Positions 25,191 through 49,062 of a DNA stretch of 64,000 bases are shown here, piece by piece. The notes below the pieces were generated by a model, which saw only the letters and a list, made by a program, of their open reading frames with translations, had not been told where the DNA came from and did no database searches. The position numbers and the translations under genes are program-made. The stretch comes from an uncultured Planctomycetales bacterium. GTDB taxonomy: Bacteria > Omnitrophota > Gorgyraeia > Gygaellales > Profunditerraquicolaceae. The stretch is from the NCBI GenBank assembly GCA_964603585.1, contig CAZRVK010000001.1, positions 5,327-69,326 of the forward strand. The letters are read 5' to 3'. Within the stretch, counting starts at the first letter, position 1; the number at the start of each line of letters is the position of its first letter.

Positions 25191-25356
25191 CGGTGGCTCA
25201 TTGCTGATGGCTCATGGTAAAAACAAAATGCTTGTAAACAATCGGCGCTATCGAGTAGAAGAATCAAACTATAAACCATTAGCGAAAGCTATAGAAGAAA
25301 TTGGCTTATAACTTATGTGCTTGCTTTTACCATGAGCTATGAGCCATGAGCCAACG
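25191..25356. repeat. ATGAGCC/GGCTCAT heptamer hairpin repeat element, copy A (long form with about 100 nt central region)
   Basis: Left arm TGGCTCATTGCTGATGGCTCATGGTAAAA and right arm TTTTACCATGAGCTATGAGCCATGAGCCAAC are inverted repeats; the right flank is CAACGACCCAAGGCTATAAAC. Confidence 0.8.
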
Positions 25357-25377
25357 ACCCAAGGCTATAAACTTCCC

Positions 25378-28300
25378 ATGCCCCATTCTGACTTTATCCA
25401 CCTGCATCTGCACACCCAGTATTCACTTTTAGACGGCGCCTGCCGGATCAATGAGCTGTTGGCCCTGGCTAATCAGTACAAAATGGACTCCCTGGCAATC
25501 ACTGATCACGGCAACATGTTTGGCGCAATTGATTTTTATACCTCGGCCCAAAAAGCCGGGATCAAACCGATCATCGGCTGTGAGGTTTATATCGCTCCCA
25601 AAAGCCGCCTGGAAAAGAGTATCCAGGGGGTCGAAGACTCTTCATATCACTTGATCCTTTTAGCCAGGAATGAGGCAGGATACCACAACCTAATGAAATT
25701 GGTTTCTATTTCTTATCTTGAAGGATTTTATTATAAGCCCAGGATCGATAAAGATATACTTGAAGAATACAAAGACGGATTGATCGCCCTTAGCGCCTGT
25801 CTGAAAGGAGAGATTCCTTCTTTATTACGGCAAAAACGTTTCAATGACGCCTTAAAATCTGCCGAAGAATTCCTTCGGATATTCACAAAGGAGAATTTCT
25901 ACCTGGAACTGCAGGAAAATGGTATACCGGAACAAAAAGAAGTGAATCTTGGCCTGGTAAGGATATCGAAAGAACTGCATATCCCGCTGGTAGCCACAAA
26001 TGATGTCCATTACTTGAACCGTAACCATGCCAAAAGCCATGAAGCGCTTTTATGCATACAAACTCAAACCACGCTTAACGATCCTAAGCGAATGAAACTG
26101 CAAACCGATGAATTTTATTTTAAATCCCCGCAGGAAATGAAACAATTGTTTAGCGAGTATCCAGAGGCGATCGCCAACACCCTTGAGATCGCCAGCCGCT
26201 GTAATCTGGAACTGGATTTTTCATCATATCATTTGCCGAAATACCTGCCTCCGGAAGGAAAGACCAAAGAAGAGTTCCTGCGCCAATTATGCGAAACCGG
26301 GATAATACAGCGTTTTGGACAGAAATCTACCGAGATCGCTGAACGCCTGGAGTATGAACTAAAAATGATCAAGAATATGGGATTTACCAGCTATTTCCTG
26401 ATCGTATGGGATTTCATCCATTACGCTAAAAGTCAGGATATCCCGGTAGGCCCGGGAAGAGGAAGCGCAGCAGGAAGCATCGTCAGTTACCTTTTAGGGA
26501 TCACCGATATTAACCCGTTAAAATACGGACTGATCTTTGAAAGGTTCCTTAATCCCGAGCGCTTGAGCATGCCAGATATCGATATCGACTTTTGTTACGA
26601 AAGAAGGCCGGAAGTAATAGATTATGTAACAAAAAAATACGGCAGGGAGAATGTGGCCCAGATCATCACTTTCGGAACAATGCAGGCAAAGCTGGTGGTC
26701 CGTGACGTAGGCAGGGTCATGGGTATTCCTTACGCCGATGTTGACCGGATCGCCAAAATGATCCCTACTGACCCCGGGACCACCTTAAAAAAAGCCCTGG
26801 AAACCGAAATGGAATTAAATACCCTGTATAAAACCGATTCACAGATCACCGAACTCTTAAACATCGCGATGTCATTGGAAGGGCTTAACCGGCACGCCTC
26901 TATGCATGCCGCCGGTGTCGTAATCAGCGATAAGCCTTTGAATAATTACAGCCCGTTGTTTAAAACCCAGGATGACCAGATCTCCACCGGATTTACCATG
27001 GAAGCCCTGGAGAAGATCGGGCTTTTAAAAATGGATTTTTTGGGGTTACGCACCCTGACCGTAATTGACCAAACGATCAAAATAATAGAAAAAACACAGG
27101 GCAAAAGAATAAAAGTCGATGAAATACCGCTCAATGACCAAGAAACTTACGGACTTCTTAGTTCCTCACAAACTATCGGCATATTTCAGGTCGAAAGTTC
27201 CGGGATGCGCGACCTTTTACGAAAGCTTGAACCCGAAACATTCGAAGACCTGATCGCTTTAGTTGCCTTATACCGCCCTGGGCCTATCGGATCCGGGATG
27301 CTCGATGATTTTATCAAGCGCAAACACAAGCTTATCCCGATCAAATATGAACATCCTTTACTTGAACCCATACTTAAGGAAACCTACGGGATCATGGTTT
27401 ACCAGGAACAGATCATGCAGATCGCATCAAGCCTGGCTGGGTTCAGTCTTGCCCAAGCCGATATTTTACGCAAAGCCATGGGCAAAAAGATCCCGGAGGT
27501 AATGGAAAAACAGCGTATAAATTTCATTTCCGGATGCATTAAGAACGGGGTAAAAGAATCCACCGCCGCAAAGATCTTCGATCTGATCGAATATTTTTCC
27601 GGATACGGATTCAACAAGTCGCACAGCGCGGCATATGCACTTATTTCTTATCGTACGGCCTATTTAAAAGCGAATTATCCGGTTGAATTCATGACCGCCC
27701 TGCTTACTTCCGAGCGTAACAACACGGATAAAATCGTAGAATACGTCAACGAGGCAAACCGCATGGGTTTAAAAATATTGCCGCCGGATATCAATCAAAG
27801 CGATGCCTTTTTTAAAGTGATCGATCACGAAACCATCCGGTTTGCCCTCTTAGCAATAAAAAACGTGGGGTCCGGCGCTGCAGAATCCATCGTAGCCGCC
27901 CGTGCTAAAGGAGAATTCACCTCCTTAGATAAGTTTTGCCAGCGTATAGATCTTCGATTAGCAAACAAGAAAGTCTTAGAGAGCCTGATCAAATGCGGAG
28001 CCATGGATTGTTTTAACCTGCCGCGTGCACAAATGACAGCATCCTTAGATAAAATAATCGAGGCGGCCGCCAGAAGCCAAAAAGAGATATCCACCGGACA
28101 ACTTTCTTTCTTTGATTCCCCGGTTTCCGGACAAAAAGGATTCAAAGAAAATACTGCCAATATCCCATATGTCAAGGAGTGGCCGGAACCGCAGATACTG
28201 GCTTTCGAAAAAGAAATGCTGGGCTTCTACATCAGCGGGCATCCGCTGGCGCGTTATGCCAGACAATTAAAAAGATTTGCGTCCACCTCAATTGCCAATT

Positions 28301-28818
28301 TAGGAAATCATAAACATGATGATGAAATAAAGATAGTATGCCTTTTAGCCAAAATAAAACAGACCGTAACCAGGGCAAAACAGGAAAAAATGGCGATCTT
28401 AAAGCTGGAAGATCTCGAAGGAGTTGCCGAAGCTTTGGTTTTTCCGCAATCTTTCCAGAAAATATCCCGTTATTTATTGCCGAATACCGTGGTATTGATC
28501 AAAGGACGTTTAAGCATAGTAGAGGATGAAGCTCCTAAAATACTGGTCAATGAACTCCTCCCGATGGATGCGGTATATAAATTGATCAGCTCGATCAATA
28601 TAAATCTTTCCGGTTTACAGGAAAACCTGTTTATATCCCTTAAAACACTGCTTGCCAGCCACAATGGCTCAACACCAGTATTTTTGCATATAGATACCCC
28701 TGCCAAATCCGTAGTCCAGCTTGTAGTCGGAGAAAACCTATATGTCTCTCCCAATGAGAAATTAATACAAGAGATAATCGACCTTATAGGAGAAGATAAA
28801 TTATCCCTTGTTTTATAA
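25378..28818 (+). CDS. dnaE: DNA polymerase III subunit alpha
   Basis: PHP domain (HLHLHTQYSLLDGA), polymerase core, OB fold. I chose the ATG at 25378 rather than the track start 25339, which lies inside the repeat element. Confidence 0.9.
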   Translation: MPHSDFIHLHLHTQYSLLDGACRINELLALANQYKMDSLAITDHGNMFGAIDFYTSAQKAGIKPIIGCEVYIAPKSRLEKSIQGVEDSSYHLILLARNEAGYHNLMKLVSISYLEGFYYKPRIDKDILEEYKDGLIALSACLKGEIPSLLRQKRFNDALKSAEEFLRIFTKENFYLELQENGIPEQKEVNLGLVRISKELHIPLVATNDVHYLNRNHAKSHEALLCIQTQTTLNDPKRMKLQTDEFYFKSPQEMKQLFSEYPEAIANTLEIASRCNLELDFSSYHLPKYLPPEGKTKEEFLRQLCETGIIQRFGQKSTEIAERLEYELKMIKNMGFTSYFLIVWDFIHYAKSQDIPVGPGRGSAAGSIVSYLLGITDINPLKYGLIFERFLNPERLSMPDIDIDFCYERRPEVIDYVTKKYGRENVAQIITFGTMQAKLVVRDVGRVMGIPYADVDRIAKMIPTDPGTTLKKALETEMELNTLYKTDSQITELLNIAMSLEGLNRHASMHAAGVVISDKPLNNYSPLFKTQDDQISTGFTMEALEKIGLLKMDFLGLRTLTVIDQTIKIIEKTQGKRIKVDEIPLNDQETYGLLSSSQTIGIFQVESSGMRDLLRKLEPETFEDLIALVALYRPGPIGSGMLDDFIKRKHKLIPIKYEHPLLEPILKETYGIMVYQEQIMQIASSLAGFSLAQADILRKAMGKKIPEVMEKQRINFISGCIKNGVKESTAAKIFDLIEYFSGYGFNKSHSAAYALISYRTAYLKANYPVEFMTALLTSERNNTDKIVEYVNEANRMGLKILPPDINQSDAFFKVIDHETIRFALLAIKNVGSGAAESIVAARAKGEFTSLDKFCQRIDLRLANKKVLESLIKCGAMDCFNLPRAQMTASLDKIIEAAARSQKEISTGQLSFFDSPVSGQKGFKENTANIPYVKEWPEPQILAFEKEMLGFYISGHPLARYARQLKRFASTSIANLGNHKHDDEIKIVCLLAKIKQTVTRAKQEKMAILKLEDLEGVAEALVFPQSFQKISRYLLPNTVVLIKGRLSIVEDEAPKILVNELLPMDAVYKLISSININLSGLQENLFISLKTLLASHNGSTPVFLHIDTPAKSVVQLVVGENLYVSPNEKLIQEIIDLIGEDKLSLVL

Positions 28819-28871
28819 GCGTTTATTTTATACTTCAATTATCGGTTTATAGCGAGTTAGCAAAAAAACTG

Positions 28872-28900
28872 TTGACATCGTAAGCTTTTGTTTGTATTAT
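28872..28900 (+). promoter_or_regulatory. sigma-70 promoter TTGACA-17-TATTAT upstream of the HU gene
   Basis: Hexamers at 28872-28877 and 28895-28900. Confidence 0.65.
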
Positions 28901-28937
28901 ACTTACGAATAATAAGATATTTAAAAAGGGGGCAAAA

Positions 28938-29210
28938 ATGACCAAAAAAGATATTATCCTGAAAGTTTCCGATGAAACAAAATTAAAGCAAATAGATGTA
29001 AAACAGGTAGTACAAAAAACCTTTGACTGCATAACTGAGGCACTGGTAAGAGGAGAAAAGATCGAGTTGCGCAATTTCGGGGTTTTCAAAGTAAAACAGC
29101 GGAAAAGCCGCACCGGAAGGAATCCACGCACCGGTCAAGTAGTCCCAGTCCCCCCCAGAAAAGTGGTTATCTTTAAGCCCGGCTTAGAGATGAAGCATGA
29201 AATAAAATAA
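28938..29210 (+). CDS. HU/IHF family DNA-binding protein
   Basis: 90 aa, with the arm motif GVFKVKQRKSRTGRNPRTGQVVPVPPRKVVIFKPG. RBS AAAGGGGG lies upstream. Confidence 0.85.
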   Translation: MTKKDIILKVSDETKLKQIDVKQVVQKTFDCITEALVRGEKIELRNFGVFKVKQRKSRTGRNPRTGQVVPVPPRKVVIFKPGLEMKHEIK

Positions 29211-29238
29211 CTCTATAACCTCACCTTTATAAAAAACG

Positions 29239-30504
29239 ATGTTTAACCGAATTCCCGGAACAAAAGATATCCTTCCGGATGAAATATATTTATGGCAGAC
29301 AATAGAAAATATCTCCCGGGATATTTTCGCGCTTTATGATTTTAAGGAGATCCGTCCGCCGGTAATCGAGGATGCCTCTTTATTCAACCGTTCTTTGGGG
29401 GAATTTACCGAGATCGTCCAAAAACAGATGTTTTTGATAGCTCATCAGGACGACCTTTATGCACTGCGACCGGAAGGGACAGCCTCGGTTGTGCGCGCAT
29501 ATATCGAAAATCACCTTGATAAAACATTGGGGGCCGCCAAATTATATTATATCGGGCCGATGTTCCGTTTAGAACGGCCGCAAAAAGGAAGACTGCGGCA
29601 ATTTCATCATATTGGGGCCGAAGTCATCGGTTCATCATCTTGCGATGTTGACATTGAGATCATTTCACTGGCAAACCGCCTTTTAAGGGAATATAAAATC
29701 GATGACTATGAGATACTCATCAACAGCCTCGGATGTCATAAGGATAAACAGGGGTTTATCGGAATACTCCGTGAAAAATTAAAAGATAAACTCAATGATC
29801 TATGTCCTGACTGCAATGACCGCTTTCACCGTAATGTGTTGCGCATTTTGGACTGTAAAAATGAATCCTGCAAAGCAGTCGTTAATAATATGCACCTGGA
29901 TAACCAACATCTTTGCCAGGATTGCCGTGAACATTTTTCAAAAGTAGAATCCGGCTTAAAAACTTTAGGCATCAGGTTCACGGTTTCCCCGCTGCTTGTC
30001 CGTGGCCTCGACTATTATACCCGTACGGTTTTTGAAATAAAACATGCCGGTTTAGGCGCCCAGGATGCGATTGGAGCAGGAGGGCGCTATGACAACCTGG
30101 TAAAAGATTTAGGCGGCCCGGATCTATGCGCAGTAGGTTTTGCCTTTGGGGTCGAAAGAGTATTGCTGGCCGCCAAAGATATTCCTAAAGAACAAAAACA
30201 GAAAAAACTGGCTTTTGTTTTTCCTTTGGGAGATAAGGCACAATCCAGTATTCTTGAACTTGCGGATAACTTAAGGCTTGCAGGTATCCCAACCGCACAA
30301 TGTTTTTCTTTTGAGGAAAAATCCCTAAAAGGCGCTATGCGGCAGGCTAACAACATCAAGGCAAGCCACTTTTTGATCATTGGCGATAATGAGTTGAAAA
30401 ATGGCGTGGTCTCCTGTAAAGATATGTCTACCGGAGAGCAAAAGGAATATAAAAAAGACGAAATTATTAACAAACTCAAAGATAATAAACCAAGGATAGA
30501 CTAA
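29239..30504 (+). CDS. hisS: histidine--tRNA ligase
   Basis: Class II motifs and HisRS-specific regions (RPEGTASVVRAY, GGRYDNL). Confidence 0.9.
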   Translation: MFNRIPGTKDILPDEIYLWQTIENISRDIFALYDFKEIRPPVIEDASLFNRSLGEFTEIVQKQMFLIAHQDDLYALRPEGTASVVRAYIENHLDKTLGAAKLYYIGPMFRLERPQKGRLRQFHHIGAEVIGSSSCDVDIEIISLANRLLREYKIDDYEILINSLGCHKDKQGFIGILREKLKDKLNDLCPDCNDRFHRNVLRILDCKNESCKAVVNNMHLDNQHLCQDCREHFSKVESGLKTLGIRFTVSPLLVRGLDYYTRTVFEIKHAGLGAQDAIGAGGRYDNLVKDLGGPDLCAVGFAFGVERVLLAAKDIPKEQKQKKLAFVFPLGDKAQSSILELADNLRLAGIPTAQCFSFEEKSLKGAMRQANNIKASHFLIIGDNELKNGVVSCKDMSTGEQKEYKKDEIINKLKDNKPRID

Positions 30505-30505
30505 C

Positions 30506-31888
30506 ATGTTACGGACACACACCTGTGGAGGCTTAAATGCCAAGGATGCACAAAAAACCGTTAATCTTTGCGGATGGGTCGCAACACGCCGGGATCACGG
30601 TAAATTAATTTTTATTGATATCCGCGACCGCTACGGGATCACTCAAGTCACCTTTATCCCTAAAGAAGCCGGGGATTCCTATAAAATAGCCCAGGAACTA
30701 AGAGCAGAGTATGTCATCCGTGTAACCGGGGTGGTCAACTTAAGGCCGGCAAACAACATTAATCCGAACTTGCCTACAGGTGAGATCGAGATTCTGGCAA
30801 AGAACGTGGAAATCCTCAATCCCAGTTTAACCCCGCCGTTCGAGATCCTAGATACGCTTGAAGTTGCCGAAGATATACGGCTTAAATACCGCTATCTGGA
30901 TCTGCGCCGTAAAAAGGCTTTCGATAATTTCGCCTTACGGCATATAGTCTATCAAACCACCCGGGCATTCCTGAATCAACAGGGGTTCATCGAGGCAGAA
31001 ACCCCTATACTTACAAAATCCACTCCGGAAGGGGCACGAGATTATTTAGTCCCTTCCCGCATATCCGAAGGGGAATTCTTTGCTCTGCCCCAATCACCAC
31101 AGCTGTTTAAACAGCTGTTGATGGTGGCTGGGATAGATAAATATTATCAGATCGCTAAATGTTTCCGTGATGAAGACCTGCGTGCAGACCGCCAGCCTGA
31201 ATTTACACAACTGGATATGGAAATATCATTTCCTTCGGAAGAAGAGATATTCTCCATCATTGAACAACTGATGCAATTGATCTTTAAAACGGCTAAAAAC
31301 ATCCAGATCGAGATCCCTTTCCCGAGGATGACCTACCAGGAAGCGCAAAGCAAATACGGCTGTGATAAACCTGATATCAGAAAGGAAACAAAACTGGATT
31401 TCGCTTTTATCTGGGTCACCGATTTTCCCTTATTCAAATTCAACCAGGAAGAAAAACGCTGGGAAAGCGAGCACCATCCATTTACCAGCCCAAATGACCA
31501 GGACCTGGATATATTGGAAAGCACCCCCGATAAAGTAAAATCACGAGCGTATGACCTGGTCTTAAACGGCATGGAGATAGGTTCCGGCTCAATCAGGATA
31601 CACAACCCCAAGCTGCAGGAAAGGATATTTAAGATCATCGGCATCGATGATGAACAGGCAAGAAAAAGGTTTGGGTTCCTGCTGGAGGCATTTCAATATG
31701 GTGCGCCTCCGCATGGGGGATTTGCCTTTGGTATGGACAGATTGTTAGCTACTTTGGCGAATGAGGATAGTATCAGAGAAATGATCGCATTCCCAAAGAC
31801 CGCTAAAGGATTCTGCCCTTTGACCAATGCCCCGTCTGAAGTAGAGGAAAAGCAGTTAAAAGAACTACATTTAAGCATCAGGAAGTAA
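30506..31888 (+). CDS. aspS: aspartate--tRNA ligase, short bacterial-type form lacking the GAD insertion domain
   Basis: N-terminal OB fold, FRDEDLRADRQPEFTQLDME, YGCDKPDIR followed directly by FIWVTDFPLF, HHPFTSP, GGFAFGMDRL. 460 aa. Confidence 0.85.
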   Translation: MLRTHTCGGLNAKDAQKTVNLCGWVATRRDHGKLIFIDIRDRYGITQVTFIPKEAGDSYKIAQELRAEYVIRVTGVVNLRPANNINPNLPTGEIEILAKNVEILNPSLTPPFEILDTLEVAEDIRLKYRYLDLRRKKAFDNFALRHIVYQTTRAFLNQQGFIEAETPILTKSTPEGARDYLVPSRISEGEFFALPQSPQLFKQLLMVAGIDKYYQIAKCFRDEDLRADRQPEFTQLDMEISFPSEEEIFSIIEQLMQLIFKTAKNIQIEIPFPRMTYQEAQSKYGCDKPDIRKETKLDFAFIWVTDFPLFKFNQEEKRWESEHHPFTSPNDQDLDILESTPDKVKSRAYDLVLNGMEIGSGSIRIHNPKLQERIFKIIGIDDEQARKRFGFLLEAFQYGAPPHGGFAFGMDRLLATLANEDSIREMIAFPKTAKGFCPLTNAPSEVEEKQLKELHLSIRK

Positions 31889-31936
31889 CACGGTAGAAGA
31901 TAAATCTTAAAAGTGCAAACAAAAAGGGGGGAACAG

Positions 31937-32488
31937 ATGCAAATGGAAAGCAGATTAAAGATACTATTACTGGCCACAGTTTTCTTATTGTCGGGTTGTG
32001 TCGTAAGGACTTATCAATCGACGCGTGACAGGGTCGATCAGGACCTGGCCGGTAACCGCGGATATTTAAAAGGCCAAATACCCGCTGGCAGCGAGTTAAA
32101 AGAAAGGCCGACTACCAGGTCAACCCAGGTAGTAGAAATCGAACTCCACCCGCTGATCAAATTCGAAAAGAAAAATAAACCCAAAGTGTCTGACCCCGTT
32201 ATCGAACCACCGGTTACCCAGGAACAAAATAAAGGGATAATTTATGAAAATATCCCGGCTATGGATGATGCTAAAGCGGCAATGAACTTTGAAAAATATA
32301 CCGTCCAAAAAGGGGATACCCTTCAGAAGATCTCCGATAAATTTTACGGCACGACTAAAAAATGGCCGAAGATATTTGATGCAAATAAGGATATAGTCAA
32401 AGGACCGAATAAGCTCTACCCCGGGCAGGTGATCAATATCCCGCAAGAAGTAAATGCCTTGCAGGAACCGGCAGAAAACCTTAAGTAA
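31937..32488 (+). CDS. LysM-domain lipoprotein
   Basis: Signal peptide with lipobox LLSGC and a C-terminal LysM (YTVQKGDTLQKISDKFYG). RBS AAAAGGGGGG precedes the ATG at 31937. Confidence 0.6.
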   Translation: MQMESRLKILLLATVFLLSGCVVRTYQSTRDRVDQDLAGNRGYLKGQIPAGSELKERPTTRSTQVVEIELHPLIKFEKKNKPKVSDPVIEPPVTQEQNKGIIYENIPAMDDAKAAMNFEKYTVQKGDTLQKISDKFYGTTKKWPKIFDANKDIVKGPNKLYPGQVINIPQEVNALQEPAENLK

Positions 32489-33467: not shown

Positions 33468-34767
33468 AGTAAAACTGATCTTCGGCGCAATACTGCTCTT
33501 TGGCATAAGCTATATCCTTGCGCTTAACCCGATAATACCGCTGTTTTTACTATTGATCAGCATCTATATCCTGGTAACTTATCCGAATCTAAAATCCCAG
33601 CCGTATAATTTCCTTAATTTAACCTTACTGTTTGTGATCTCGTTTACCTTAAGCTACTTTATCCTTAAGCAGGGCTGGCCCTTATTTTACCTGCCTTTTG
33701 GATTGATCCCCATGCTTTCAATCATACTTTTCGATATGCCGGTTATCTCATTATTAATCACCCTTGCATCATCGATCAGCATTGCAGCAATAAACGGAAG
33801 CATCTCCATAGGCATGTTATTCCTGGTCAGCGGGATAGTATCGATCCTTGTCAGCCGTGACTCCCGAAGAAGAGCAGTAATAATAAAGGCCGGGTGTATA
33901 ATCGGATTAATGCAAATGCTGGCGCTTTTATCGATCAACCATTTTAAATTCCAAAACACAAGCAATTATTTGATGTTCCTCGCTAACGGGATAATTTACA
34001 GCATTATTGTCGTCGGGATACTGCCCGTATTCGAATACCTGTTCAAAACTATCACCAATGTCAGCCTTCTGGAGCTTGCGGATTTCAATATCCCTTTGAT
34101 GCAGCGGATGACTATGGAAGCCCCCGGGACCTATCACCACAGCCTGATCGTAGGCAATTTATCCGACGCCGCATGTAAAGCGATCGGGGCGCATGCACTA
34201 TTAGCAAGGATAGGGGCGTATTATCACGACATCGGCAAACTCGCTAAACCGGATTATTTCAGTGAGAACCAGGGGATGGATATAAGTAAACACTCTACCC
34301 TGACGCCGGCAATGAGCAAAATGGTGATCATGAACCATGTAAAGGAAGGGCTGGACCTTGCAAAAAAATATAAACTCAACCCCCGTTTAATTGATTTCAT
34401 ACAACAGCATCATGGCTCAAGCCTGGTTTACTATTTTTACCGACGGGCATTGGAAACACAGGAAAACAACCAGGAAGTAGCCGAAGAAGGCTTCCGCTAC
34501 CCTGGCCCAAAACCCAATACAAAGGAAACTGCCGTAGTCCTTCTGGCGGATTCAGTTGAGGCCGCGGCCCGCACATTAAAAGAGCCTTCACCGGCAAAGA
34601 TAGAAGAATTAGTGCATAAAATAATCAATAATAAATTCATCGACGGACAGCTTGATGAATGTGACCTTACCCTCAAGGACTTAGAGAGAATCGCAGAAGT
34701 ATTCATCCGAATACTTACCGGGATCTACCATGGACGCATCAGTTATCCTGAAACCGAACAACATTAA
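33442..34767 (+). CDS. 7TM receptor with intracellular HD hydrolase domain (YqfF-like, HDIG)
   Basis: Seven predicted TM helices then an HD domain (HSLIVGNL...YYHDIGK). Typical phoH-yqfF-ybeY gene order. The start may instead be 33412. Confidence 0.7.
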   Translation: MITQILKNKVKLIFGAILLFGISYILALNPIIPLFLLLISIYILVTYPNLKSQPYNFLNLTLLFVISFTLSYFILKQGWPLFYLPFGLIPMLSIILFDMPVISLLITLASSISIAAINGSISIGMLFLVSGIVSILVSRDSRRRAVIIKAGCIIGLMQMLALLSINHFKFQNTSNYLMFLANGIIYSIIVVGILPVFEYLFKTITNVSLLELADFNIPLMQRMTMEAPGTYHHSLIVGNLSDAACKAIGAHALLARIGAYYHDIGKLAKPDYFSENQGMDISKHSTLTPAMSKMVIMNHVKEGLDLAKKYKLNPRLIDFIQQHHGSSLVYYFYRRALETQENNQEVAEEGFRYPGPKPNTKETAVVLLADSVEAAARTLKEPSPAKIEELVHKIINNKFIDGQLDECDLTLKDLERIAEVFIRILTGIYHGRISYPETEQH

Positions 34768-35207
34768 TGAAGGTTCTTATTCAAAACCTGCAAAAAAAAT
34801 TTCGATTGACCCCGGTTTTTAAGGTATTGCTTGAGAAAACAGCAATTTCTGCCTTAACTGGAAAAAAAAAGGATCCGCGCAGCCAGATAACGATCTTAAT
34901 TACAAATGACGCTCAAATAAAAGAATTTAATCTGTTATATCATGCAAACCCTGAAGCAACCGATGTACTTACATTCGATCTTTCAGAAAACAAAAGAATG
35001 CTTTCCGCCGATATTATTATCTCTGCCGAGACTGCAAAAAATAATGCCAAGGCATATAAAACTACCACGGATTTTGAAATAATGCTTTATGCCGCGCATG
35101 GTATTTTACACCTTTTAGGACATAATGACGATACAGCCAGGAAACGCCAAAGGATGAACCAGGAAGCAGAGGAGATAGTACAGAAAATACTTTTAGCTCA
35201 TAGCTGA
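34767..35207 (+). CDS. ybeY: rRNA maturation RNase YbeY
   Basis: Zinc-binding motif HGILHLLGHND. The final four codons and the stop lie inside repeat copy B. Confidence 0.85.
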   Translation: MKVLIQNLQKKFRLTPVFKVLLEKTAISALTGKKKDPRSQITILITNDAQIKEFNLLYHANPEATDVLTFDLSENKRMLSADIIISAETAKNNAKAYKTTTDFEIMLYAAHGILHLLGHNDDTARKRQRMNQEAEEIVQKILLAHS

Positions 35208-35277
35208 TAGCTCATGGTAAAAACTACGAACAATATCCAATGAGCCATGAGCAATGAGCCAAGAGCCATGAGCCAAC
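35194..35277. repeat. ATGAGCC/GGCTCAT heptamer hairpin repeat element, copy B (short form)
   Basis: TAGCTCATAGCTGATAGCTCATGGTAAAAAC ... ATGAGCCATGAGCAATGAGCCAAGAGCCATGAGCCAAC. It abuts the recO start codon. Confidence 0.8.
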
Positions 35278-42329: not shown

Positions 42330-43080
42330 ATTCCTTCTTAGTTCATTAGTATTCCTTGCGGCCGTAGCCTATGTAATAAAATTCGGCACTCCTCAACTGT
42401 TAAGAATGTATGTAGAAACAGGTATGGGCAACTGCCAAAACCAGCCGATTTTCTGCACCATCCCGCAAGGTGAGATTAATAATCCAGATATTGACGCCGA
42501 CTATATCAAAGGCTTAACACGTTATATGCTCCCGGAGATCGAAATCGATGTCCCAAAAAATTTTACCGTGGTCAAGCAATCTATTACCAAGGTTTATTAT
42601 AAGAAACGCCGCCAGCTTGATAAAAAGCCGACAATATACCTGCTTTATCAAAAACCGGGGTTTTTCATCAATTTATTCCCGCAGCTGCAAAGGCAGGGGG
42701 TAGAAGATGACTACACGTTCATGCAAATGACCTTAAACGCCAAGACCAAAGATATCAAGAATATTACCGATGCATTCTTCTCCATTACCAAATCGATCTT
42801 TACCCCTAATTTAGGAGATCAGAAAAACTTAAAGATCGTCCGGTTCGTAGTGAAAAATAAACGCGGGTTCATTACTTACAACCTTATGCCGAAAGAAAAC
42901 TATTTCGACTGTAATTTATTCGATACCGATAAGAATTATTTCAAGCTGTATATCAAGGATATCGGCGCAACTTTAGACCTTGAGAAAGTCATCGCCATCA
43001 TTTCAACAATAAAAAAAGGCGATATCCCCGCAATAAGCGATAAATTGCCAGGATTGGAACAATCTGTCAAGATAAAATAA
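42307..43080 (+). CDS. hypothetical membrane-anchored protein
   Basis: N-terminal signal anchor (AIIKFLLSSLVFLAAVAYVI). No recognisable domain. The start is uncertain (the track ORF starts at 42283). Confidence 0.4.
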   Translation: MKKKAIIKFLLSSLVFLAAVAYVIKFGTPQLLRMYVETGMGNCQNQPIFCTIPQGEINNPDIDADYIKGLTRYMLPEIEIDVPKNFTVVKQSITKVYYKKRRQLDKKPTIYLLYQKPGFFINLFPQLQRQGVEDDYTFMQMTLNAKTKDIKNITDAFFSITKSIFTPNLGDQKNLKIVRFVVKNKRGFITYNLMPKENYFDCNLFDTDKNYFKLYIKDIGATLDLEKVIAIISTIKKGDIPAISDKLPGLEQSVKIK

Positions 43081-43167
43081 AGTTTGCCTTGACTTTTAGC
43101 TGGTTTTGAGCTAAAAATAAAGGGTTGTTAATCAATAGAAAGGTTTCAGGCCGTGAATCTCGAATCA

Positions 43168-44460
43168 ATGGATAAAATAGTCTCGCTTTGCAAACGCAGA
43201 GGGTTTATTTTCCAATCCTCGGATATTTACGGCGGCCTTTCCAATACCTGGGACTACGGGCCTTACGGAGTAGAACTTAAAAATAACGTCAAACGCGCCT
43301 GGTGGAAAACAGTAGTTTACCAGCGTAACGATATATTCGGTATGGATGCGGCGATTTTAATGCACCCCAAAGTCTGGGAGGCTTCCGGGCATGTGGAAAA
43401 CTTCTATGACCTGAAAAGCGACTGCAAATCATGCAAAAAACGCTTTAAAACCGCTGACCTTAAAGACCCGAAGAAGTGCCCGGAATGTTCCGGAGAATTG
43501 ACCGAAGGCAGGCCATTTAACCTTATGTTCAAAACACATCAAGGACCGGTAGCAGATGATGCCAGCCTTATTTATATGCGCCCGGAAACCGCACAGGGAA
43601 TGTTCGTAAATTTCCTGAATATCATGGATTCAAAACACCCGAAACTGCCTTTTGGCATGGCACAGATCGGCAAGGCATTCCGCAATGAGATCACTCCCGG
43701 GAATTTTATTTTCCGCACCAGGGAATTCGAGCAGATGGAGATCGAATATTTTGTCCGGCCGGCAGAGGCCGATAACGCCTTCGATTATTGGGTCAATGAA
43801 AGATTCAACTGGTATCTGGGGCTGGGAATAAAAAAAGAGAAACTGCGACAGCGCCGGCATGAACAGGATGAACTGGCGCATTATGCCCGCGCCTGTACCG
43901 ATGTAGAGTATAATTTCCCGATCGGATGGAGCGAACTGGAAGGGGTGGCAAACCGCACTGACTTCGACCTGCGCATGCATGCCGAAAAAAGCGGCCGGGA
44001 TTTCAACTACTTCGATGATGCCTCAAAAGAAAAGTTCATCCCTTTTATTATAGAGCCTTCGGGCGGGGTAGACCGCAGTATACTGGCATTCTTAACCGAT
44101 GCCTATCATGAAGAAAAGGTTAAAGACGATATACGCGTGGTCCTAAAGCTTCACAAAGATCTTTCTCCGGTAAAAGTCGCCGTCCTGCCCCTTTTAAAGA
44201 ACCGGCCTCAAATTACGGAACTGGCAAAAAGAATTGCTCAAGACCTAAAGAAAAGCATCCCTGCAGTCTATGATGACACAGCGGCTATCGGTAAACTTTA
44301 CCGGCGGCAGGATGAAGTCGGAACGCTTTATTGCGTAACCATAGATGTGCAGTCTTTAGAAGACAATCAAGTCACCGTTCGCGATCGAGATACTATGTTA
44401 CAGGAAAGAATCGCTATTGACAGGTTAAAAAGTTATATTTTAGATAAACTTAACAATTAG
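43168..44460 (+). CDS. glyQS: glycine--tRNA ligase (alpha2 dimeric type)
   Basis: SLCKRRGFIFQSSDIYGGLSNTWDYGPYGVELKNNVKRAWW and class II motifs. The ORF could start at the GTG at 43153. Confidence 0.85.
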   Translation: MDKIVSLCKRRGFIFQSSDIYGGLSNTWDYGPYGVELKNNVKRAWWKTVVYQRNDIFGMDAAILMHPKVWEASGHVENFYDLKSDCKSCKKRFKTADLKDPKKCPECSGELTEGRPFNLMFKTHQGPVADDASLIYMRPETAQGMFVNFLNIMDSKHPKLPFGMAQIGKAFRNEITPGNFIFRTREFEQMEIEYFVRPAEADNAFDYWVNERFNWYLGLGIKKEKLRQRRHEQDELAHYARACTDVEYNFPIGWSELEGVANRTDFDLRMHAEKSGRDFNYFDDASKEKFIPFIIEPSGGVDRSILAFLTDAYHEEKVKDDIRVVLKLHKDLSPVKVAVLPLLKNRPQITELAKRIAQDLKKSIPAVYDDTAAIGKLYRRQDEVGTLYCVTIDVQSLEDNQVTVRDRDTMLQERIAIDRLKSYILDKLNN

Positions 44461-44464
44461 CACG

Positions 44465-44561
44465 TAGTCCATTGAGTTTTGGTTCTTGGCTCTTGGCCTA
44501 TGGCTCATCTGTTTTACTATGAGCCATGAGCTATAAGCCAAAAGCCACATGCTATGGACTA
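44465..44561. repeat. ATGAGCC/GGCTCAT heptamer hairpin repeat element, copy C (with outer 8-bp IR TAGTCCAT/ATGGACTA)
   Basis: TTGGCTCTTGGCCTATGGCTCAT-loop-ATGAGCCATGAGCTATAAGCCAAAAGCCA; the right terminus is GCTATGGACTAAA. Confidence 0.8.
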
Positions 44562-44582
44562 AAAAGGAGGGTTTTAAAAGCA

Positions 44583-47321
44583 ATGGCAAAGAAATATGTT
44601 TATTCGTTTGGCGGTGGAAAGGCTGATGGCAATGAAAGCATGAAAAATCTTCTGGGTGGCAAAGGCGCTAACCTGGCGGAAATGGCCGGACATAAAAACC
44701 TAAAACTTCCGGTACCTCCGGGATTTACCCTAACCACGGAAGTTTGTACTTACTATTATGACCATAAAAAATCTTATCCCAAGGGATTAAGAGAAGATGT
44801 TGATAAGGCGATGGCAAAGATCGAATCCTTAATGGACAGGGGTTTCGGCGATGCCGATAATCCGTTATTAGTTTCCGTTCGCTCCGGCGCGCGTAAATCC
44901 ATGCCCGGGATGATGGAGACTGTTTTAAATGTAGGATTGACCGAAAAAACTATCCCCGGCCTCGTCAAACAATCTAACGGCAATGCCCGTTTCGTTTATG
45001 ATGCTTACCGCAGGCTGATCATGATGTATTCCGATGTAGTCATGGAAAAGGCCGCCGGTATCGAACCAAAAGATGAAGAAGGCATCCGCAAACAGTTAGA
45101 ACGCATCATGGCCCAAATGAAGAAGGAAAAAGGCTACACCAGCGATACCGACCTTACCGTAGAAGACTTGAAGAAACTGACGGCTATGTTCAAAGAAAAG
45201 GTAAAAGAAGTCTTAGGCAAAGATTTCCCCGATGATCCCAAACAACAGTTATGGGGAGGGATTGGCGCAGTATTCTCATCATGGAACGGTAAACGTGCTA
45301 TCAGCTACCGCCGTATCGAGAATATCCCTGATGAATGGGGTACTGCCGTAAACGTGCAAACAATGGTATTCGGAAATATGGGCAATGATTCCGCAACAGG
45401 AGTAGCCTTTAGCCGTAATCCCGGAAATGGAGAAAACGGTTTTTACGGAGAATACCTGATCAACGCACAGGGTGAAGATGTCGTGGCCGGGATACGTACA
45501 CCGGCACCGATCAACGAATACTCAAAATCCGACCATAATAAGGATTTATTGACATTGGAAAAAGCAATGCCCGCGATCTATAAAGAGCTGTCCGGTTTCC
45601 GCGCACGCCTGGAAAAACATTACCGTGATATGCAGGATATCGAGTTTACCATCGAAAAGGGCAGGCTTTTCATGCTTCAGTGCCGCGTAGGAAAGCGTAA
45701 TGGTCCGGCTGCGGTGCGTATCGCAGTTGACATGCTTAAGGAAAAGGCAATCAAAAAAGAAGAAGCCGTAATGCGTGTCAGCCCAGCACAACTTGATGAA
45801 TTGCTTCATCCGATCATCAATCCAAAAGATGAACTCGCAAATAAGCCTCTGGCCAAAGGCCTTCCGGCAGGCCCGGGTGGCGCTTCGGGACAGATAGTTT
45901 TCAGCGCCGCTGATGCAGTGGAGTGGAAAAAACAGGGTAAAAAATTGATCCTTGTCCGGGAAGAAACCAATCCCGAGGATGTTGACGGAATGCGTGCGGC
46001 CGAAGCAATCCTTACCGCCCGCGGAGGAATGACCTCACATGCTGCATTAGTCGCCCGCGGCTGGGGCAAATGCTGTATTGTCGGCTGTTCCGACTTGCAC
46101 ATCGATTATGCTAAAAAAGAACTGCATGTGGCTGGAAAGATATTAAAGGAAGGGGAGTGGCTGACGTTAAACGGGACCAAAGGAACGGTTTATGCCGGAA
46201 AACTTCCCATGATGGATGCGACCGAAGAAAATGTTCTTTTGACCCAGTTCCTTAACCTGTGCGGCTCGATCAAGAAATTAGGGATCCGCACCAACGCGGA
46301 AACCCCGGAAGACGCAGCAAAGGCAAGGCAGTTCGGCGCTGAAGGAATTGGTTTATTCAGGACCGAGCATATGTTTTACGGTAAAGGTTCTGATGAACCT
46401 CTTTTTATCTTACGTAAAATGATCGTTTCTAAAACAGAAGCAGAAAGGCAAAAAGCGGCAGATGAACTTTTCCCATATGTCAAAAAAGACATGAAAGCAA
46501 CTCTTGAAGCAATGAACGGATTCCCGGTCGTTATCCGCCTACTGGACCCGCCGCTGCATGAATTTGTGCCCAGAGAAACGGAAAAATTACAGGAATTAGC
46601 CAAAGAGTTGAATATCTCAATGGAAGAGCTCACGAAGCGCGCCGAAGGCCTGCATGAATCAAATCCGATGATGGGCCACCGCGGAGTGCGTTTAGGAGTG
46701 ACTTATCCGGAGATCAGCGCTATGCAAATCAAGGCTATCTTCGAAGCCGCGGCCGAGTTGCTTAAAGAAGGCAAAAAACCGTACCCGGAGATCATGATCC
46801 CGGTAGTTTGCGACGTAAAAGAACTGGATGACCAGCTTGTGATCGCCAAAAATATATATAAGGAAGTGCTTAAGAAATACGGGTTAAAAACCATAAAGCA
46901 TATGTTTGGCACAATGATCGAGATCCCTCGCGCAGCGCTTGTGGCCGGTGAACTGGCAACTGTCGCGCAGTTCTTCTCCTACGGAACAAACGACATGACC
47001 CAGATGGGATTCGGATTTTCCCGTGACGATATCGGAGGGTTCCTGCCGGAATATGTCAAAAAGGGCATTTTACCGGAAGACCCCTTCCAGACCATTGACC
47101 AGAAAGGGATCGGAGAACTGATTAAGATCGGTATTGAACGCGGCCGTAAAACCCGTCGTGACCTGGAAGTCGGTATTTGCGGGGAACACGGAGGAGACCC
47201 GCGCACAGTTGAATTCTGCCATAAGGTCGGCATGAATTATGTAAGCTGTTCGCCTTTCCGCGTGCCGATCGCAAAGCTGTCAGCAGCACAGGCGGTGTTA
47301 AAAGAGAAGTCAAAGAAATAA
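44583..47321 (+). CDS. ppdK: pyruvate, phosphate dikinase
   Basis: PEP-utilising enzyme domains, a phosphohistidine region (GGMTSHAALVARGWG), and a C-terminal TIM barrel. RBS AAAAGGAGGG precedes the ATG at 44583. The track start 44526 is inside the repeat. Confidence 0.9.
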   Translation: MAKKYVYSFGGGKADGNESMKNLLGGKGANLAEMAGHKNLKLPVPPGFTLTTEVCTYYYDHKKSYPKGLREDVDKAMAKIESLMDRGFGDADNPLLVSVRSGARKSMPGMMETVLNVGLTEKTIPGLVKQSNGNARFVYDAYRRLIMMYSDVVMEKAAGIEPKDEEGIRKQLERIMAQMKKEKGYTSDTDLTVEDLKKLTAMFKEKVKEVLGKDFPDDPKQQLWGGIGAVFSSWNGKRAISYRRIENIPDEWGTAVNVQTMVFGNMGNDSATGVAFSRNPGNGENGFYGEYLINAQGEDVVAGIRTPAPINEYSKSDHNKDLLTLEKAMPAIYKELSGFRARLEKHYRDMQDIEFTIEKGRLFMLQCRVGKRNGPAAVRIAVDMLKEKAIKKEEAVMRVSPAQLDELLHPIINPKDELANKPLAKGLPAGPGGASGQIVFSAADAVEWKKQGKKLILVREETNPEDVDGMRAAEAILTARGGMTSHAALVARGWGKCCIVGCSDLHIDYAKKELHVAGKILKEGEWLTLNGTKGTVYAGKLPMMDATEENVLLTQFLNLCGSIKKLGIRTNAETPEDAAKARQFGAEGIGLFRTEHMFYGKGSDEPLFILRKMIVSKTEAERQKAADELFPYVKKDMKATLEAMNGFPVVIRLLDPPLHEFVPRETEKLQELAKELNISMEELTKRAEGLHESNPMMGHRGVRLGVTYPEISAMQIKAIFEAAAELLKEGKKPYPEIMIPVVCDVKELDDQLVIAKNIYKEVLKKYGLKTIKHMFGTMIEIPRAALVAGELATVAQFFSYGTNDMTQMGFGFSRDDIGGFLPEYVKKGILPEDPFQTIDQKGIGELIKIGIERGRKTRRDLEVGICGEHGGDPRTVEFCHKVGMNYVSCSPFRVPIAKLSAAQAVLKEKSKK

Positions 47322-47405
47322 GGTAGCTCATGGCTCATAGCTCATGGCTCATTATAAAAAATGAGCTCTGAGCTATGAGCCAACTACCCAACGCTATGGA
47401 CTAAA
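47322..47405. repeat. ATGAGCC/GGCTCAT heptamer hairpin repeat element, copy D
   Basis: TAGCTCATGGCTCATAGCTCATGGCTCAT-TATAAAAA-ATGAGCTCTGAGCTATGAGCCAACTACCCAACGCTATGGACTAAA. Confidence 0.8.
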
Positions 47406-47407
47406 CT

Positions 47408-48223
47408 ATGGAAGCCCTAAAAACATACCTCAAAGAAATACGCACCATTGCCTTATTAAAACCGGAAGAAGAGATATCCTTAAGTACCAAGGTACAAAAA
47501 GGGGATGAACATGCCAGGAAGGCAATGATCCGCGCAAATCTTAGGCTTGTAATCAACATCGCCAAGAAATACATGTATCTGGGAATTCCACTCCTGGATC
47601 TGATTGAAGAGGGGAATTTAGGCCTGATGCGGGCGGTAGATAAGTTCGATCCGAAACGAGGATTCCGTTTCTCAACCTATGCGGCCTGGTGGATCAAACA
47701 AAGCATATCCCGATCCATTGTCGAGCATGGGAAAATGATCCGTATCCCGGTTTACATGAACGAACTGATCACTAAATGGAAAAAAACCAAAGAACAGCTG
47801 GCGCATAAACTAAACCAGCTGCCGACAGATGAGGAAATAGCAAAAAAACTTAAACTGTCCGTGGATAAAGTAGAACAAATAAATTTCTGGCTTTCAACCA
47901 GTACCTCTTCATTAGAGGCCCCGATCGGAGAAGAAGGGGAAAGCCATATTTCGGACCTGGTAGAGGATAAAACTTCAATTTCTCCTGACGCAGAGATCGA
48001 GCATATGATGGATAAAGAACGCGTCGCCAACCTTTTAGCCGGGATGCTGGACCGGGAAAGAAAAGTGCTGGATATGCGCTTTGGCCTAGCGGACGGCAAA
48101 GCCCATACCTTAGCGGAAGTTTCTAAGAAACTTGGGGTTTCCCGTGAAAGGGTAAGGCAAATCGAAGAAGAGGCCTTGCGCAAAATACGTAAAGTTGTAG
48201 ATCAACAAGATGGAGAATTATAA
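47408..48223 (+). CDS. RNA polymerase sigma factor, sigma-70 family (regions 1.2/2/3/4, no region 1.1)
   Basis: Region 2 DLIEEGNLGLMRAVDKFDPKRGFRFSTYAAWWIKQSI and region 4.2 TLAEVSKKLGVSRERVRQIEEEALRKIR. 271 aa. Confidence 0.8.
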   Translation: MEALKTYLKEIRTIALLKPEEEISLSTKVQKGDEHARKAMIRANLRLVINIAKKYMYLGIPLLDLIEEGNLGLMRAVDKFDPKRGFRFSTYAAWWIKQSISRSIVEHGKMIRIPVYMNELITKWKKTKEQLAHKLNQLPTDEEIAKKLKLSVDKVEQINFWLSTSTSSLEAPIGEEGESHISDLVEDKTSISPDAEIEHMMDKERVANLLAGMLDRERKVLDMRFGLADGKAHTLAEVSKKLGVSRERVRQIEEEALRKIRKVVDQQDGEL

Positions 48224-48247
48224 GCCTGTTAAAAAGGAGCCGTAGAG

Positions 48248-48772
48248 ATGAAGGCAAAGATTGATTTAAAAGAGCATATCCGGAATATACCGGATTTCCC
48301 CAAAAAAGGGATATTGTTCCGGGATATTACCACCCTTTTAAAAGATAAACAGGCATTTAAAAGCGCTATAGATACTATAGTAAAAAAATATAAAAGCAAG
48401 AAAATCGATAAAGTAGTCGCGGTTGAGGCACGCGGGTTCATTCTGGGTGGGGCGATCGCGCATTGTTTGGGGGCAGGATTTGTACCGGTGCGTAAAAAAG
48501 GCAAACTGCCATGGAAAACCAATAGTATCACCTATGACTTGGAATATGGCACCGACACTCTGGATATGCATGATGATGCCATCAAACCCAATAACCGCGT
48601 ATTAATAATTGATGACCTCTTAGCTACCGGAGGGACGATCAAGGCAGTTATTGACCTGGTCAAACAATCCCAGGGCAAGATCATCGGTATCGGTTTTTTA
48701 ATCGAGCTCACCGGCTTAAAAGGCGCACAAAAGCTAAAAGACTATCCGCTGTATTCGGTGATAAAATATTAA
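48248..48772 (+). CDS. apt: adenine phosphoribosyltransferase
   Basis: IRNIPDFPKKGILFRDITTLL and the PRPP motif VLIIDDLLATGGT. Confidence 0.9.
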   Translation: MKAKIDLKEHIRNIPDFPKKGILFRDITTLLKDKQAFKSAIDTIVKKYKSKKIDKVVAVEARGFILGGAIAHCLGAGFVPVRKKGKLPWKTNSITYDLEYGTDTLDMHDDAIKPNNRVLIIDDLLATGGTIKAVIDLVKQSQGKIIGIGFLIELTGLKGAQKLKDYPLYSVIKY

Positions 48773-48781
48773 AGTCGCCAT

Positions 48782-48866
48782 GGGTCACAAGGTCACAAAG
48801 TAATGTTTGAATCCTTAGTATATAGCAACAAAAAAGCTTTTACTTGTGACGTTGTGACATTGTAAC
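48782..48866. repeat. imperfect inverted repeat built from GTCACAA units between apt and tRNA-Arg
   Basis: GTCACAAGGTCACAAAGT ... about 36 nt ... ACTTGTGACGTTGTGAC, with 2 mismatches in 18. Confidence 0.5.
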
Positions 48867-48895
48867 TTTGAAACCCATAGCTATCGACTTAAATA

Positions 48896-48969
48896 GCCCC
48901 TGTAGCTCATAAGGATAGAGCAGCAGTTTCCTAAACTGCGTGCGGCAGGTTCGATTCCTGCCAGGGGCA
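48896..48969 (+). tRNA. tRNA-Arg (anticodon CCT)
   Basis: Cloverleaf folded by hand: acceptor GCCCCTG/CAGGGGC, D arm GCTC-ATAAGGATA-GAGC, anticodon stem GCAGT/ACTGC with loop TTCCTAA, T arm GCAGG-TTCGATT-CCTGC, discriminator A. Confidence 0.85.
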
Positions 48970-48984
48970 TTTTACTAAATAGCT

Positions 48985-49062
48985 TTGGGTAGATGGCTCA
49001 TAGATCATGGTTCATAGCTTATATATGTAATATGAGCCATCAGCCATGAGCTATGAACAAAA
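48985..49062. repeat. ATGAGCC/GGCTCAT heptamer hairpin repeat element, copy E
   Basis: GATGGCTCATAGATCATGGTTCATAGCTTATAT ... ATATGAGCCATCAGCCATGAGCTATGAACA. Confidence 0.75.

Follow-up and report, generated by a model that had tools for sequence, protein, structure and literature searches.

Heptamer-armed hairpins between genes of an Omnitrophota bacterium: probable gene-less derivatives of S23p-encoding elements of the intervening-sequence type

Since 1993, intervening sequences (IVS) have been known that combine inverted-repeat stems with an S23p open reading frame (ORF). Where they come from and what the ORF does are still regarded as unclear, and it has been hypothesised that the ORF encodes a mobility component (PMC4990558). 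The Coxiella IVS carries three to four copies of the heptamer GACAGAT in its stem, at the RNase III cut site and just 5' of the S23p ORF; the number of heptamers varies between strains, and RNase III processing of rRNA IVS stems has been shown experimentally (PMC4990558). Heptamers are also known from a different setting, as direct TAACTGA repeats that end a few nucleotides (nt) before start codons in Beggiatoaceae, Cyanobacteria and Bacteroidetes and for which there is no explanation (MacGregor 2015, PMC4679880). Here we analyze a 64-kb stretch of DNA (the window; contig CAZRVK010000001.1, positions 5,327 to 69,326) from an uncultured bacterium of the Omnitrophota, in which five hairpins built from GGCTCAT/ATGAGCC heptamers lie between genes. 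We conclude that these hairpins are probably gene-less derivatives of IVS-type S23p cassettes, similar to miniature inverted-repeat transposable elements (MITEs) and lodged in intercistronic spacers.

Read directly, the window contains all five hairpins at the positions reported in the initial annotation (Table 1). The 13-mer ATGAGCYATGAGC, with up to two mismatches, occurs 24 times, always within the five copies, as compared with 2.15 +/- 1.35 occurrences in shuffled sequences, and none of 100 shuffles reaches this count. Period-7 arrays, in which 7-nt units are arranged head to tail, are called in every copy by Tandem Repeats Finder, and an inverted-repeat search finds arms of 23-36 nt with 76-91% complementarity. 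The proposal that the copies form stable hairpins is borne out by RNA folding, with energies of -28.5 to -57.9 kcal/mol (z -4.7 to -8.5) and no equally stable fold among 200 shuffles of the copies. There are five to six copies in the window, 80-170 nt in size and spread over 24 kb, and Rfam recognizes only a tRNA-Arg across the whole 64 kb, the hairpins having no family match at gathering score.

Several details of the earlier description need to be modified. The loop motif GGTAAAAAC, said to be frequent, is found in copies A and B only, and the right terminus, described as conserved, is complete only in copy D, partial in copies A and C, and absent from copy B; in copy E it is present, but on the left side and reverse-complemented. 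The AAC that precedes the ATG in the copy D terminus is native sequence, being kept in relatives without the element. Alignment of the ten half-elements shows that copies A, D and E, and in part copy C, have in common a ~20-nt outer terminus without periodicity, CTACCCAAnGCTAT(GGAC)TA, with the family ends written as TAGTCCATAGCGTTGGGT; since this shared terminus is not periodic, the copies constitute one family and are not merely similar simple repeats. A search with the copy D terminus, allowing up to five substitutions, in 200+ fetched loci finds copy D of the source genome alone, and no parent element.

Two related elements in the window were overlooked previously. The one at 48776-48893 has period-7 arrays at 48783-48798 and 48844-48863 (Tandem Repeats Finder), forms a hairpin in which GCTATCGACTTAA is matched with two mismatches, and has outer ends, GTCGCCATGGGT ... 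ACCCATAGCTATCGACTTAAA, that are similar to the family terminus. The other, at 52205-52651, is a complete cassette, whose arms of 33 nt are 82% complementary and lie 374 nt apart. The protein encoded between them matches PF05635 ("23S rRNA-intervening sequence protein", E 4e-24) and TIGR02436 ("four helix bundle protein", 82.5 bits); its solved homologues (PDB 2gsc and 2rld) have five chains each, and PADLOC assigns S23p to no defence family. The complete cassette and the five hairpins have the same architecture, except that the loop of the cassette holds the gene. A stem enclosing a PF05635/TIGR02436 ORF, which is a hallmark of IVS-type elements, is thus present at 52205-52651 and lacking from the five copies, and these are therefore filed as derivatives and not as full members.

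Table 1. Hairpin elements, the complete S23p cassette and the tRNA gene in the window
Feature	Position	Strand	Arms and ends	Setting	Fold or product
Copy A	25191..25356	+	left GGCTCAT-type units; right ATGAGCT/ATGAGCC x3, then outer terminus CCAACGACCCAAGGCTAT; arms 36 nt, 86% complementary; interior 94 nt	between guaA (stop 25172) and dnaE (ATG 25378)	-57.9 kcal/mol, z -6.5
Copy B	35194..35277	+	AGCTCAT x3 and ATGAGCC-type x5	ybeY/recO junction; right arm runs up to recO ATG (35278)	-28.5 kcal/mol, z -4.7
Copy C	44465..44563	+	outer inverted repeat TAGTCCAT/ATGGACTA; GGCTCTT/GGCTCAT-type arms; short loop	between class II tRNA synthetase gene (stop 44460) and ppdK Shine-Dalgarno and ATG (44583)	-47.1 kcal/mol, z -7.9
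Copy D	47322..47405	+	(A/G)GCTCAT x4 and ATGAGCT-type x3, then outer terminus CCAACTACCCAACGCTATGGACTA; arms 23 nt, 91% complementary	ppdK stop (47321) on left, sigma-70 gene ATG (47408) on right	-42.6 kcal/mol, z -8.5
Extra hairpin	48776..48893	+	inner repeats GGTCACAA/TTGTGAC	immediately 5' of tRNA-Arg	
tRNA-Arg(CCT)	48896..48969	+		hairpin elements on either side	
Copy E	48976..49062	+	degenerate heptamer arms; outer terminus on left side as reverse complement (ATAGCTTTGGGTAG)	immediately 3' of tRNA-Arg(CCT)	-33 kcal/mol, z -5.0
Complete cassette	52205..52651	+	TTAGGTG-type x5 (52205-52244), ORF, CACCTAA-type x5 (52618-52651)	terminator of alginate-export-family gene (52172-52209) on left, GH57 gene ATG (52655) on right	
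Cassette ORF	52249-52623			within the complete cassette	124 aa; S23p / four-helix-bundle protein

The association between S23p genes and heptamer arms extends beyond the window. In a sample of 80 metagenome loci encoding S23p homologues (64 of them non-redundant), period-7 runs are found in 52% of the 160-nt S23p flanks but in only 4% of control windows from the same loci, whereas runs of periods 6 and 8 occur in 8-10% of flanks and 2-3% of control windows. Complementarity between upstream and downstream flanks exceeds the 95th percentile of permuted pairs at 41 of the 64 non-redundant loci, and at the loci with complementary flanks the arms are 65% identical to themselves at a shift of 7 nt, as against 17-29% at the other shifts from 3 to 12. 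The heptamers vary by locus (AGCTCTT, GTAGTTC, GCGCATA, GGTGTTG, ATCGCAT and others), and arms of the window's own unit, (A/T)GCTCAT, accompany S23p genes in L130, L131, L139 and L142, as well as in L116 and L026, which are from other phyla. Solo arrays near S23p cassettes often use the heptamer of the resident cassette. The commonest trinucleotide of left arms is TAG, and stop codons in all frames are present in 30% of arms and 8% of shuffles; tandem copies of a unit that includes a stop would give this result whenever the unit length is not divisible by three, but not all arms show it, and common ancestry of the units may be the reason.

Cassettes lodge co-directionally in the very short spacers between the stop and start codons of operon genes, and beside tRNA genes. 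The median distance from upstream stop to left arm is 15.5 nt and from right arm to next start 18 nt, and a same-strand ORF follows at 36 of 37 S23p loci. None of 20 S23p loci that were checked lies within an rRNA gene, and two are beside tRNA or signal recognition particle (SRP) RNA genes; the window elements similarly lie between protein-coding genes or beside the tRNA-Arg, not in rRNA. Two cassettes, one between a tRNA gene and an SRP RNA gene (L164, 873-2179) and one directly 3' of a tRNA gene (L146, 146-714), parallel the placement of hairpins on both sides of the window tRNA-Arg. A variant arrangement is seen on the reverse strand of L116 (4950-5750), where ATGAGCA x3, the S23p gene, ATGAGCA/ACGAGCA x13, a loop and TGCTCAT x3 follow one another, such that direct arrays flank the gene on both sides and the inverted partner is downstream only. 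In a further metagenome cassette (L208, 41-91 and 604-654) the arms are of TAGTCCA/ATGGACT type, and their sequence is that of the outer inverted repeat of window copies C and D; the outer terminus of the family may be a relic of another heptamer type.

We also compared the window with syntenic contigs from at least five related genomes, found by exact-protein look-ups; L126 and L215 derive from one genome, as do L209 and L214. The window's sigma-factor gene has matches at 100% and about 82% that bear the name Candidatus Omnitrophota. Concatenated PPDK and sigma-factor sequences are 79-87% identical among the genomes, and the tree is nearly star-shaped. The presence/absence polymorphism for which the initial annotation had proposed a check is evident, the junctions that hold GGCTCAT hairpins in the window being, in relatives with about 84-87% protein identity, empty or filled with other heptamers. 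Between guaA and dnaE there is an AGTTCAT hairpin in L126/L215 and an AAAGGTC hairpin in L209/L214, the junction being recovered from no other relative; between ybeY and recO, L126/L215 is empty, with the two genes overlapping in L215, and direct arrays are found in L209/L214 (CCTAAAN x4) and L216 (CTCAATA x9). The synthetase-ppdK junction carries a TTCTCGT hairpin in L126/L215 and an AAATGAC hairpin in L209/L214, and is empty in L122, L210 and L212 with a spacer of 23-24 nt. Between ppdK and the sigma factor gene are an AGTTCAT hairpin in L126/L215 and a TGTCACA hairpin in L209/L214, while in L122 and L210 the genes overlap or abut and the site is empty. Downstream of the tRNA-Arg, before the PHP gene, L126/L215 has a GGTACC-type complex, L209/L214 a direct GTCAAAG array and L212 an AGCTCTT hairpin, and L210 is empty. 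The junction between the alginate-export-family gene and the GH57 gene, where the window has its S23p cassette with TTAGGTG arms, holds an S23p cassette with AGTTCAT arms in L126/L215 and is empty in L209/L214 and L212; the two S23p proteins at this site are only 30% identical, compared to about 85% for neighbouring proteins.

The elements are thus sporadic among close relatives, L126 and L209 being occupied and L122, L210, L212 and L215 having empty junctions, as is typical of IVS-type elements, and it follows that the hairpins are not conserved leaders. L209 and L210 are the closest pair (87% identity), yet the L209 junctions are filled and those of L210 pristine, and presence therefore does not follow phylogeny. 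Together with the outer terminus shared by four of the five copies, these polymorphic junctions uphold the suggestion of a dispersed MITE-like family. The heptamer that predominates at several of the shared junctions is particular to each genome, and this points either to repeated targeting of permissive junctions or to homogenization of ancestral hairpins within genomes; the junction sequences suggest that the elements turn over or become homogenized quickly. No target-site duplication is visible when filled and empty junctions are compared, although at about 85% protein identity the sequences are too diverged for junctions to be fixed to the base. In L125 a gene for a 320-residue Y1_Tnp protein (PF01797; 3668-4630) lies directly 3' of the PHP gene, where the window has hairpins, and a stringent period-7 scan finds no heptamer arrays in this locus.

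How a gene-less hairpin can arise is illustrated by the element that precedes the tRNA-Arg in L126. Its arms are of TCGTTAT/ATAACGA type, and the 80-nt interior reads HFEKLE-TGKMLSRLISSLKTTTN, of which the first part matches the N-terminal FEDLE motif of S23p and the second part the 16-18 residues with which several S23p proteins end, the match extending to the C-terminus itself (E 2e-6; 33.3 bits compared with a maximum of 24.8 over 200 shuffles). The fusion of the two ends of S23p indicates an internally deleted gene, showing that gene-less hairpins can originate in this way; the stem-only form left by internal deletion has been shown once, in this relative. Within the window, the interior of copy A is correctly oriented for an alignment with the last third of the S23p profile, but this hidden Markov model (HMM) match is weak (E 0.29) and at most suggestive of a remnant; nothing significant was found for the copy A interior by HMM, blastn, tblastn or phmmer against all of the fetched loci.

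The initial annotation placed emphasis on the proximity of the hairpins to start codons. With neighbouring genes and true start codons fixed by Pfam matches, the distances are indeed short, at 21 nt for dnaE, 0 nt for recO, ~20 nt for ppdK, 2 nt for the sigma-70 gene and 20 nt for the PHP gene (start at 49083), but on the left the copies lie equally near to the preceding stop codons or tRNA gene end, and this leaves the particular emphasis on starts unsupported. Adjacency to start codons arises because insertion falls in very short stop-to-start spacers (25 nt or less).

We propose that a full cassette would comprise two inverted arrays of 7-nt units around a promoter-less S23p gene, and that in the present family a ~20-nt inverted repeat lies outside the arrays. 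A promoter scan called no promoter between hairpin and start codon for any of the five copies, and a terminator scan, which did call the terminator to the left of the complete cassette, called no U-tract terminator for them on the + strand; with neither promoter nor terminator of their own and with strict co-direction, the elements probably depend on read-through for their transcription. The stems, at 23-45 bp, are canonical substrates of RNase III, and in the read-through RNA they would be expected to be cut in the same manner as rRNA IVS stems. Cleavage without religation would be harmless wherever continuity of the RNA is not needed, as at the tips of rRNA helices, in intercistronic spacers and at tRNA flanks, and this would account for the sites at which the elements can persist. 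We regard them most readily as passengers, either selfish or neutral, whose side effects are spurious starts, altered C-terminal tails of upstream products and possibly the uncoupling of cistrons. We also considered whether pairing of the arms is selected in the transcript, and dropped this because mismatches of the G-U and A-C types show no asymmetry (15 and 14, respectively, in the Omnitrophota hairpins and 29 and 23 in the S23p arms); to judge from these sequences, arm complementarity looks like the product of arm generation followed by decay, not of compensatory maintenance.

In their general design the window elements resemble the rRNA IVS of Leptospira and Coxiella burnetii, with terminal inverted repeats, a long stem around a PF05635 ORF of ~120 residues, sporadic occurrence among relatives, and an ORF that is dispensable and decaying. 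They differ in being located in intercistronic spacers or beside a tRNA gene, not in rRNA helices, in having wholly lost the ORF in five of seven cases, and in having arms that are long arrays of genome-specific units. The likeness to TAACTGA-type repeats lies in the 7-nt unit, present in two to many copies, in the intergenic location near the starts of unrelated housekeeping genes, in indels that occur in 7-nt steps, and in the distribution over scattered phyla with no known mechanism of transfer; direct-only arrays are also found in the window's relatives. TAACTGA-type repeats are, however, described as direct, with a single inverted case in the BOGUAY genome, and no associated gene has been identified for them, whereas the arrays of the window type have inverted arms, shared termini and a statistical link to S23p genes. 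The STRR (short tandemly repeated repetitive) heptamers of cyanobacteria are a related case.

Several other explanations of the hairpins warrant consideration. The arrays could be simple-sequence repeats that formed in place by slippage and local inverted duplication, in which case nothing moves and S23p genes land near arrays. Heptanucleotides are the most abundant class of long simple-sequence repeats in many prokaryotes (Mrazek 2007, via PMC4679880), direct-only arrays occupy the same junctions in L214 and L216, the fact that occupied junctions are common to genomes is what drifting ancestral arrays would give, and target-site duplications are not seen. Slippage is harder to reconcile with a unit shared by all window copies and a non-periodic outer terminus shared by four of five, with the use of one unit at several unlinked junctions in each genome, with closest relatives that differ between a filled and a pristine, overlapping stop/start junction, and with the low identity of S23p proteins at the same site relative to their neighbours; moreover, the association of S23p flanks with period-7 arms is too strong for coincidence. 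We therefore regard slippage as unlikely. Much the same standing is given to the idea that the arrays are co-opted regulatory sites, at which binding of a protein (the S23p pentamer, or one similar to CspA or S1) or occlusion of the ribosome site controls translation of dnaE, recO, ppdK, the sigma factor gene and the PHP gene. The right arms do stop 0-21 nt short of start codons, the genes that follow have housekeeping functions unrelated to one another, like those of the MacGregor study, and such a role has been proposed for TAACTGA repeats together with the notion that a heptamer-binding protein could itself be mobile (PMC4679880). The same genes in relatives, however, have empty junctions or unrelated heptamers with no specific site conserved, stop codons are adjoined as closely as starts, with spacers of 25 nt or less accounting for the adjacency, and there is no strand-specific signal of pairing. 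The suggestion of a reiterated regulatory hairpin is not upheld, since the sequence is not conserved in relatives and neither a U-tract terminator nor a promoter before the starts is called.

The terminal inverted repeats, small size and multiple intergenic copies would also fit a conventional MITE, or a repetitive extragenic palindromic (REP) sequence or REPIN (a hairpin formed by paired REPs), mobilized in trans by the transposase of an insertion sequence or by a REP-associated tyrosine transposase (RAYT), and a candidate Y1_Tnp gene is present beside the PHP gene in L125. Indeed, the window hairpins share with MITEs and REPINs that they are short, non-coding, hairpin-forming, multi-copy, genome-specific and polymorphic, and that they are related to a longer form that carries a gene. 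This origin is nevertheless very improbable in our view: filled and empty junctions give no evidence of a target-site duplication, the arms are tandem heptamers of period 7 and not a unique end to which a transposase binds, the sole gene inside full-length members is that of S23p, a four-helix-bundle protein with no known catalytic activity, and the stringent period-7 scan finds no heptamer arrays in L125. No transposase was found among those window genes that were scanned against Pfam, a minority of the window ORFs. Finally, stable hairpins between co-directional genes could be conserved leaders, terminators or attenuators of the flanking genes, but L122, L210, L212 and L215 refute this by having nothing at the orthologous junctions, and neither an Rfam match nor a + strand U-tract speaks for it, leaving it with hardly any probability.

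The preferred reading, that the hairpins are gene-less derivatives of S23p cassettes, has to be weighed against a number of observations. Remnants of S23p do not reach significance in any of the five hairpins (the best, in copy A, has E 0.29), a parent copy with GGCTCAT arms is not seen in the 64-kb window of this genome, and the sole intact S23p gene there is flanked by other heptamers (TTAGGTG). A scan for ATGAGCN x3 with one genome per species found arrays in at least 118 loci, many as inverted pairs, and those among the matches listed include Nitrospirota, Chlorobiota, Cyanobacteria, Bacteroidota, Acidobacteriota, Planctomycetota, Chloroflexota, Gemmatimonadota and others; among the matches listed only two of the 118 loci, a Maribacter genome and one other, have an adjacent S23p gene, most arrays being gene-less. 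The S23p loci themselves were gathered by similarity to one Omnitrophota protein, not across PF05635. Mobility is deduced from the polymorphism of junction sequences, with neither a target-site duplication nor a transposase in evidence, and RNase III cleavage of the stems is proposed by analogy; G-U mismatches are not in excess over A-C in the arms, and most mismatches are transversions.

A more far-reaching proposal, which we put forward tentatively and think rather doubtful, is that S23p together with its heptamer arms moves or maintains itself autonomously, without the help of a transposase. In this scheme the four-helix-bundle protein, as a pentamer, would recognize the arrays in a 7-nt register and would promote the copying or conversion of hairpins into other hairpin-bearing junctions, possibly via an RNA intermediate. 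The latter idea is modelled on the related protein Avd of diversity-generating retroelements, which acts together with a reverse transcriptase. Avd is of the same superfamily, but the window S23p protein scores 28.5 bits against the Avd model NF033474 and so falls short of its cut-off of 80; neither a reverse transcriptase nor a template/variable repeat pair was noticed near the cassettes, in the course of an inspection that did not extend to a systematic search.

The arrays have consequences for gene prediction, as the initial annotation correctly noted. The longest-ORF starts of dnaE (25339) and ppdK (44526) are ATG codons within ATGAGCC units, and the last four codons of ybeY (L-A-H-S) and its stop are supplied by the left arm of copy B. 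Because seven is not a multiple of three, an array places ATG and stop codons in all three frames, and annotation of metagenome-assembled genomes is corrupted by wrong starts and by added or replaced C-terminal tails, as seen for dnaE, ppdK and ybeY and in the YbeY lengths of relatives. YbeY has 143 residues where the ybeY/recO junction is empty and 146-158 residues where heptamer arrays occupy it, the arrays being translated as C-terminal tails (compared at L214 9510-9986, L216 9529-9999, L215 9583-10014 and window 34767-35207); RecO homologues also vary in length, with database entries of 248 to 275 residues. A period-7 array, AGTTAAC/AGTTCAC x4, is also present in frame within valS at 12332-12362, with a unit that differs by a single base from published TAACTGA when the latter is reverse-complemented. 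Its translation, ...SELTVHSSQLTES..., falls between two zinc-knuckle motifs, CxxC and CPDCG, and the array looks like a heptamer array tolerated inside an essential gene.

Other small repeats were seen in the course of this work. At 49728-49810 of the window TAATTCAACCAYGTAGGGGAT occurs twice in tandem, with the second copy running into the perfect palindrome GTAGGGGATGGTCGCGACCATCCCCTAC, and the same segment holds TAGTCCAT, the 8-mer of the copy C outer inverted repeat; a similar ...CCATCCCCTAC hairpin is found at 18700-18735, 3' of a gene whose end is at 18669. Several Omnitrophota relatives have the palindrome CCTGCCTGCCGGCAGGCAGG in common, which is found repeatedly between their genes (L212 ~6400-6440; L214 ~12180 and 10780-10830; L215 ~10790-10815; L216 14940-14975), and in L216 a hairpin with TATTGAG/CTCAATA heptamers has it in the loop, a sign that small elements may be nested inside one another. 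Elhai and colleagues are said to have described, in 2008, small mobile repeats nested in the heptamer arrays of cyanobacteria.

The initial annotation called the repeat previously unrecognised, and this holds in part. Heptamer arrays near start codons (PMC4679880) and S23p stems in rRNA IVS (PMC4990558) had already been described, whereas the link between S23p and heptamer arms and the gene-less form were not found in the searchable literature; a search combining IVS, S23p or four-helix bundle with heptamers returned only the Coxiella paper, and since most subscription journals lie outside its reach a prior description is possible. Our best reading is that the five copies are IVS-type elements that reside in mRNA spacers and lack the gene, and that the S23p-heptamer link is apparently undescribed. 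These findings suggest that three puzzles may be facets of one type of element, namely the rRNA intervening sequences with their conserved ORF (1990-93), the role of TIGR02436/PF05635 proteins outside diversity-generating retroelements, and the tandem 7-nt repeats that are over-represented, and clustered beside start codons, in scattered phyla. If the element should prove to be autonomous, this would explain the rRNA intervening sequences and the large orphan family TIGR02436, as well as the excess of heptanucleotides, such as STRR and TAACTGA, in Cyanobacteria, Bacteroidota, Beggiatoaceae, Omnitrophota and other phyla, and it would supply the mobile heptamer-binding protein hypothesised by MacGregor.

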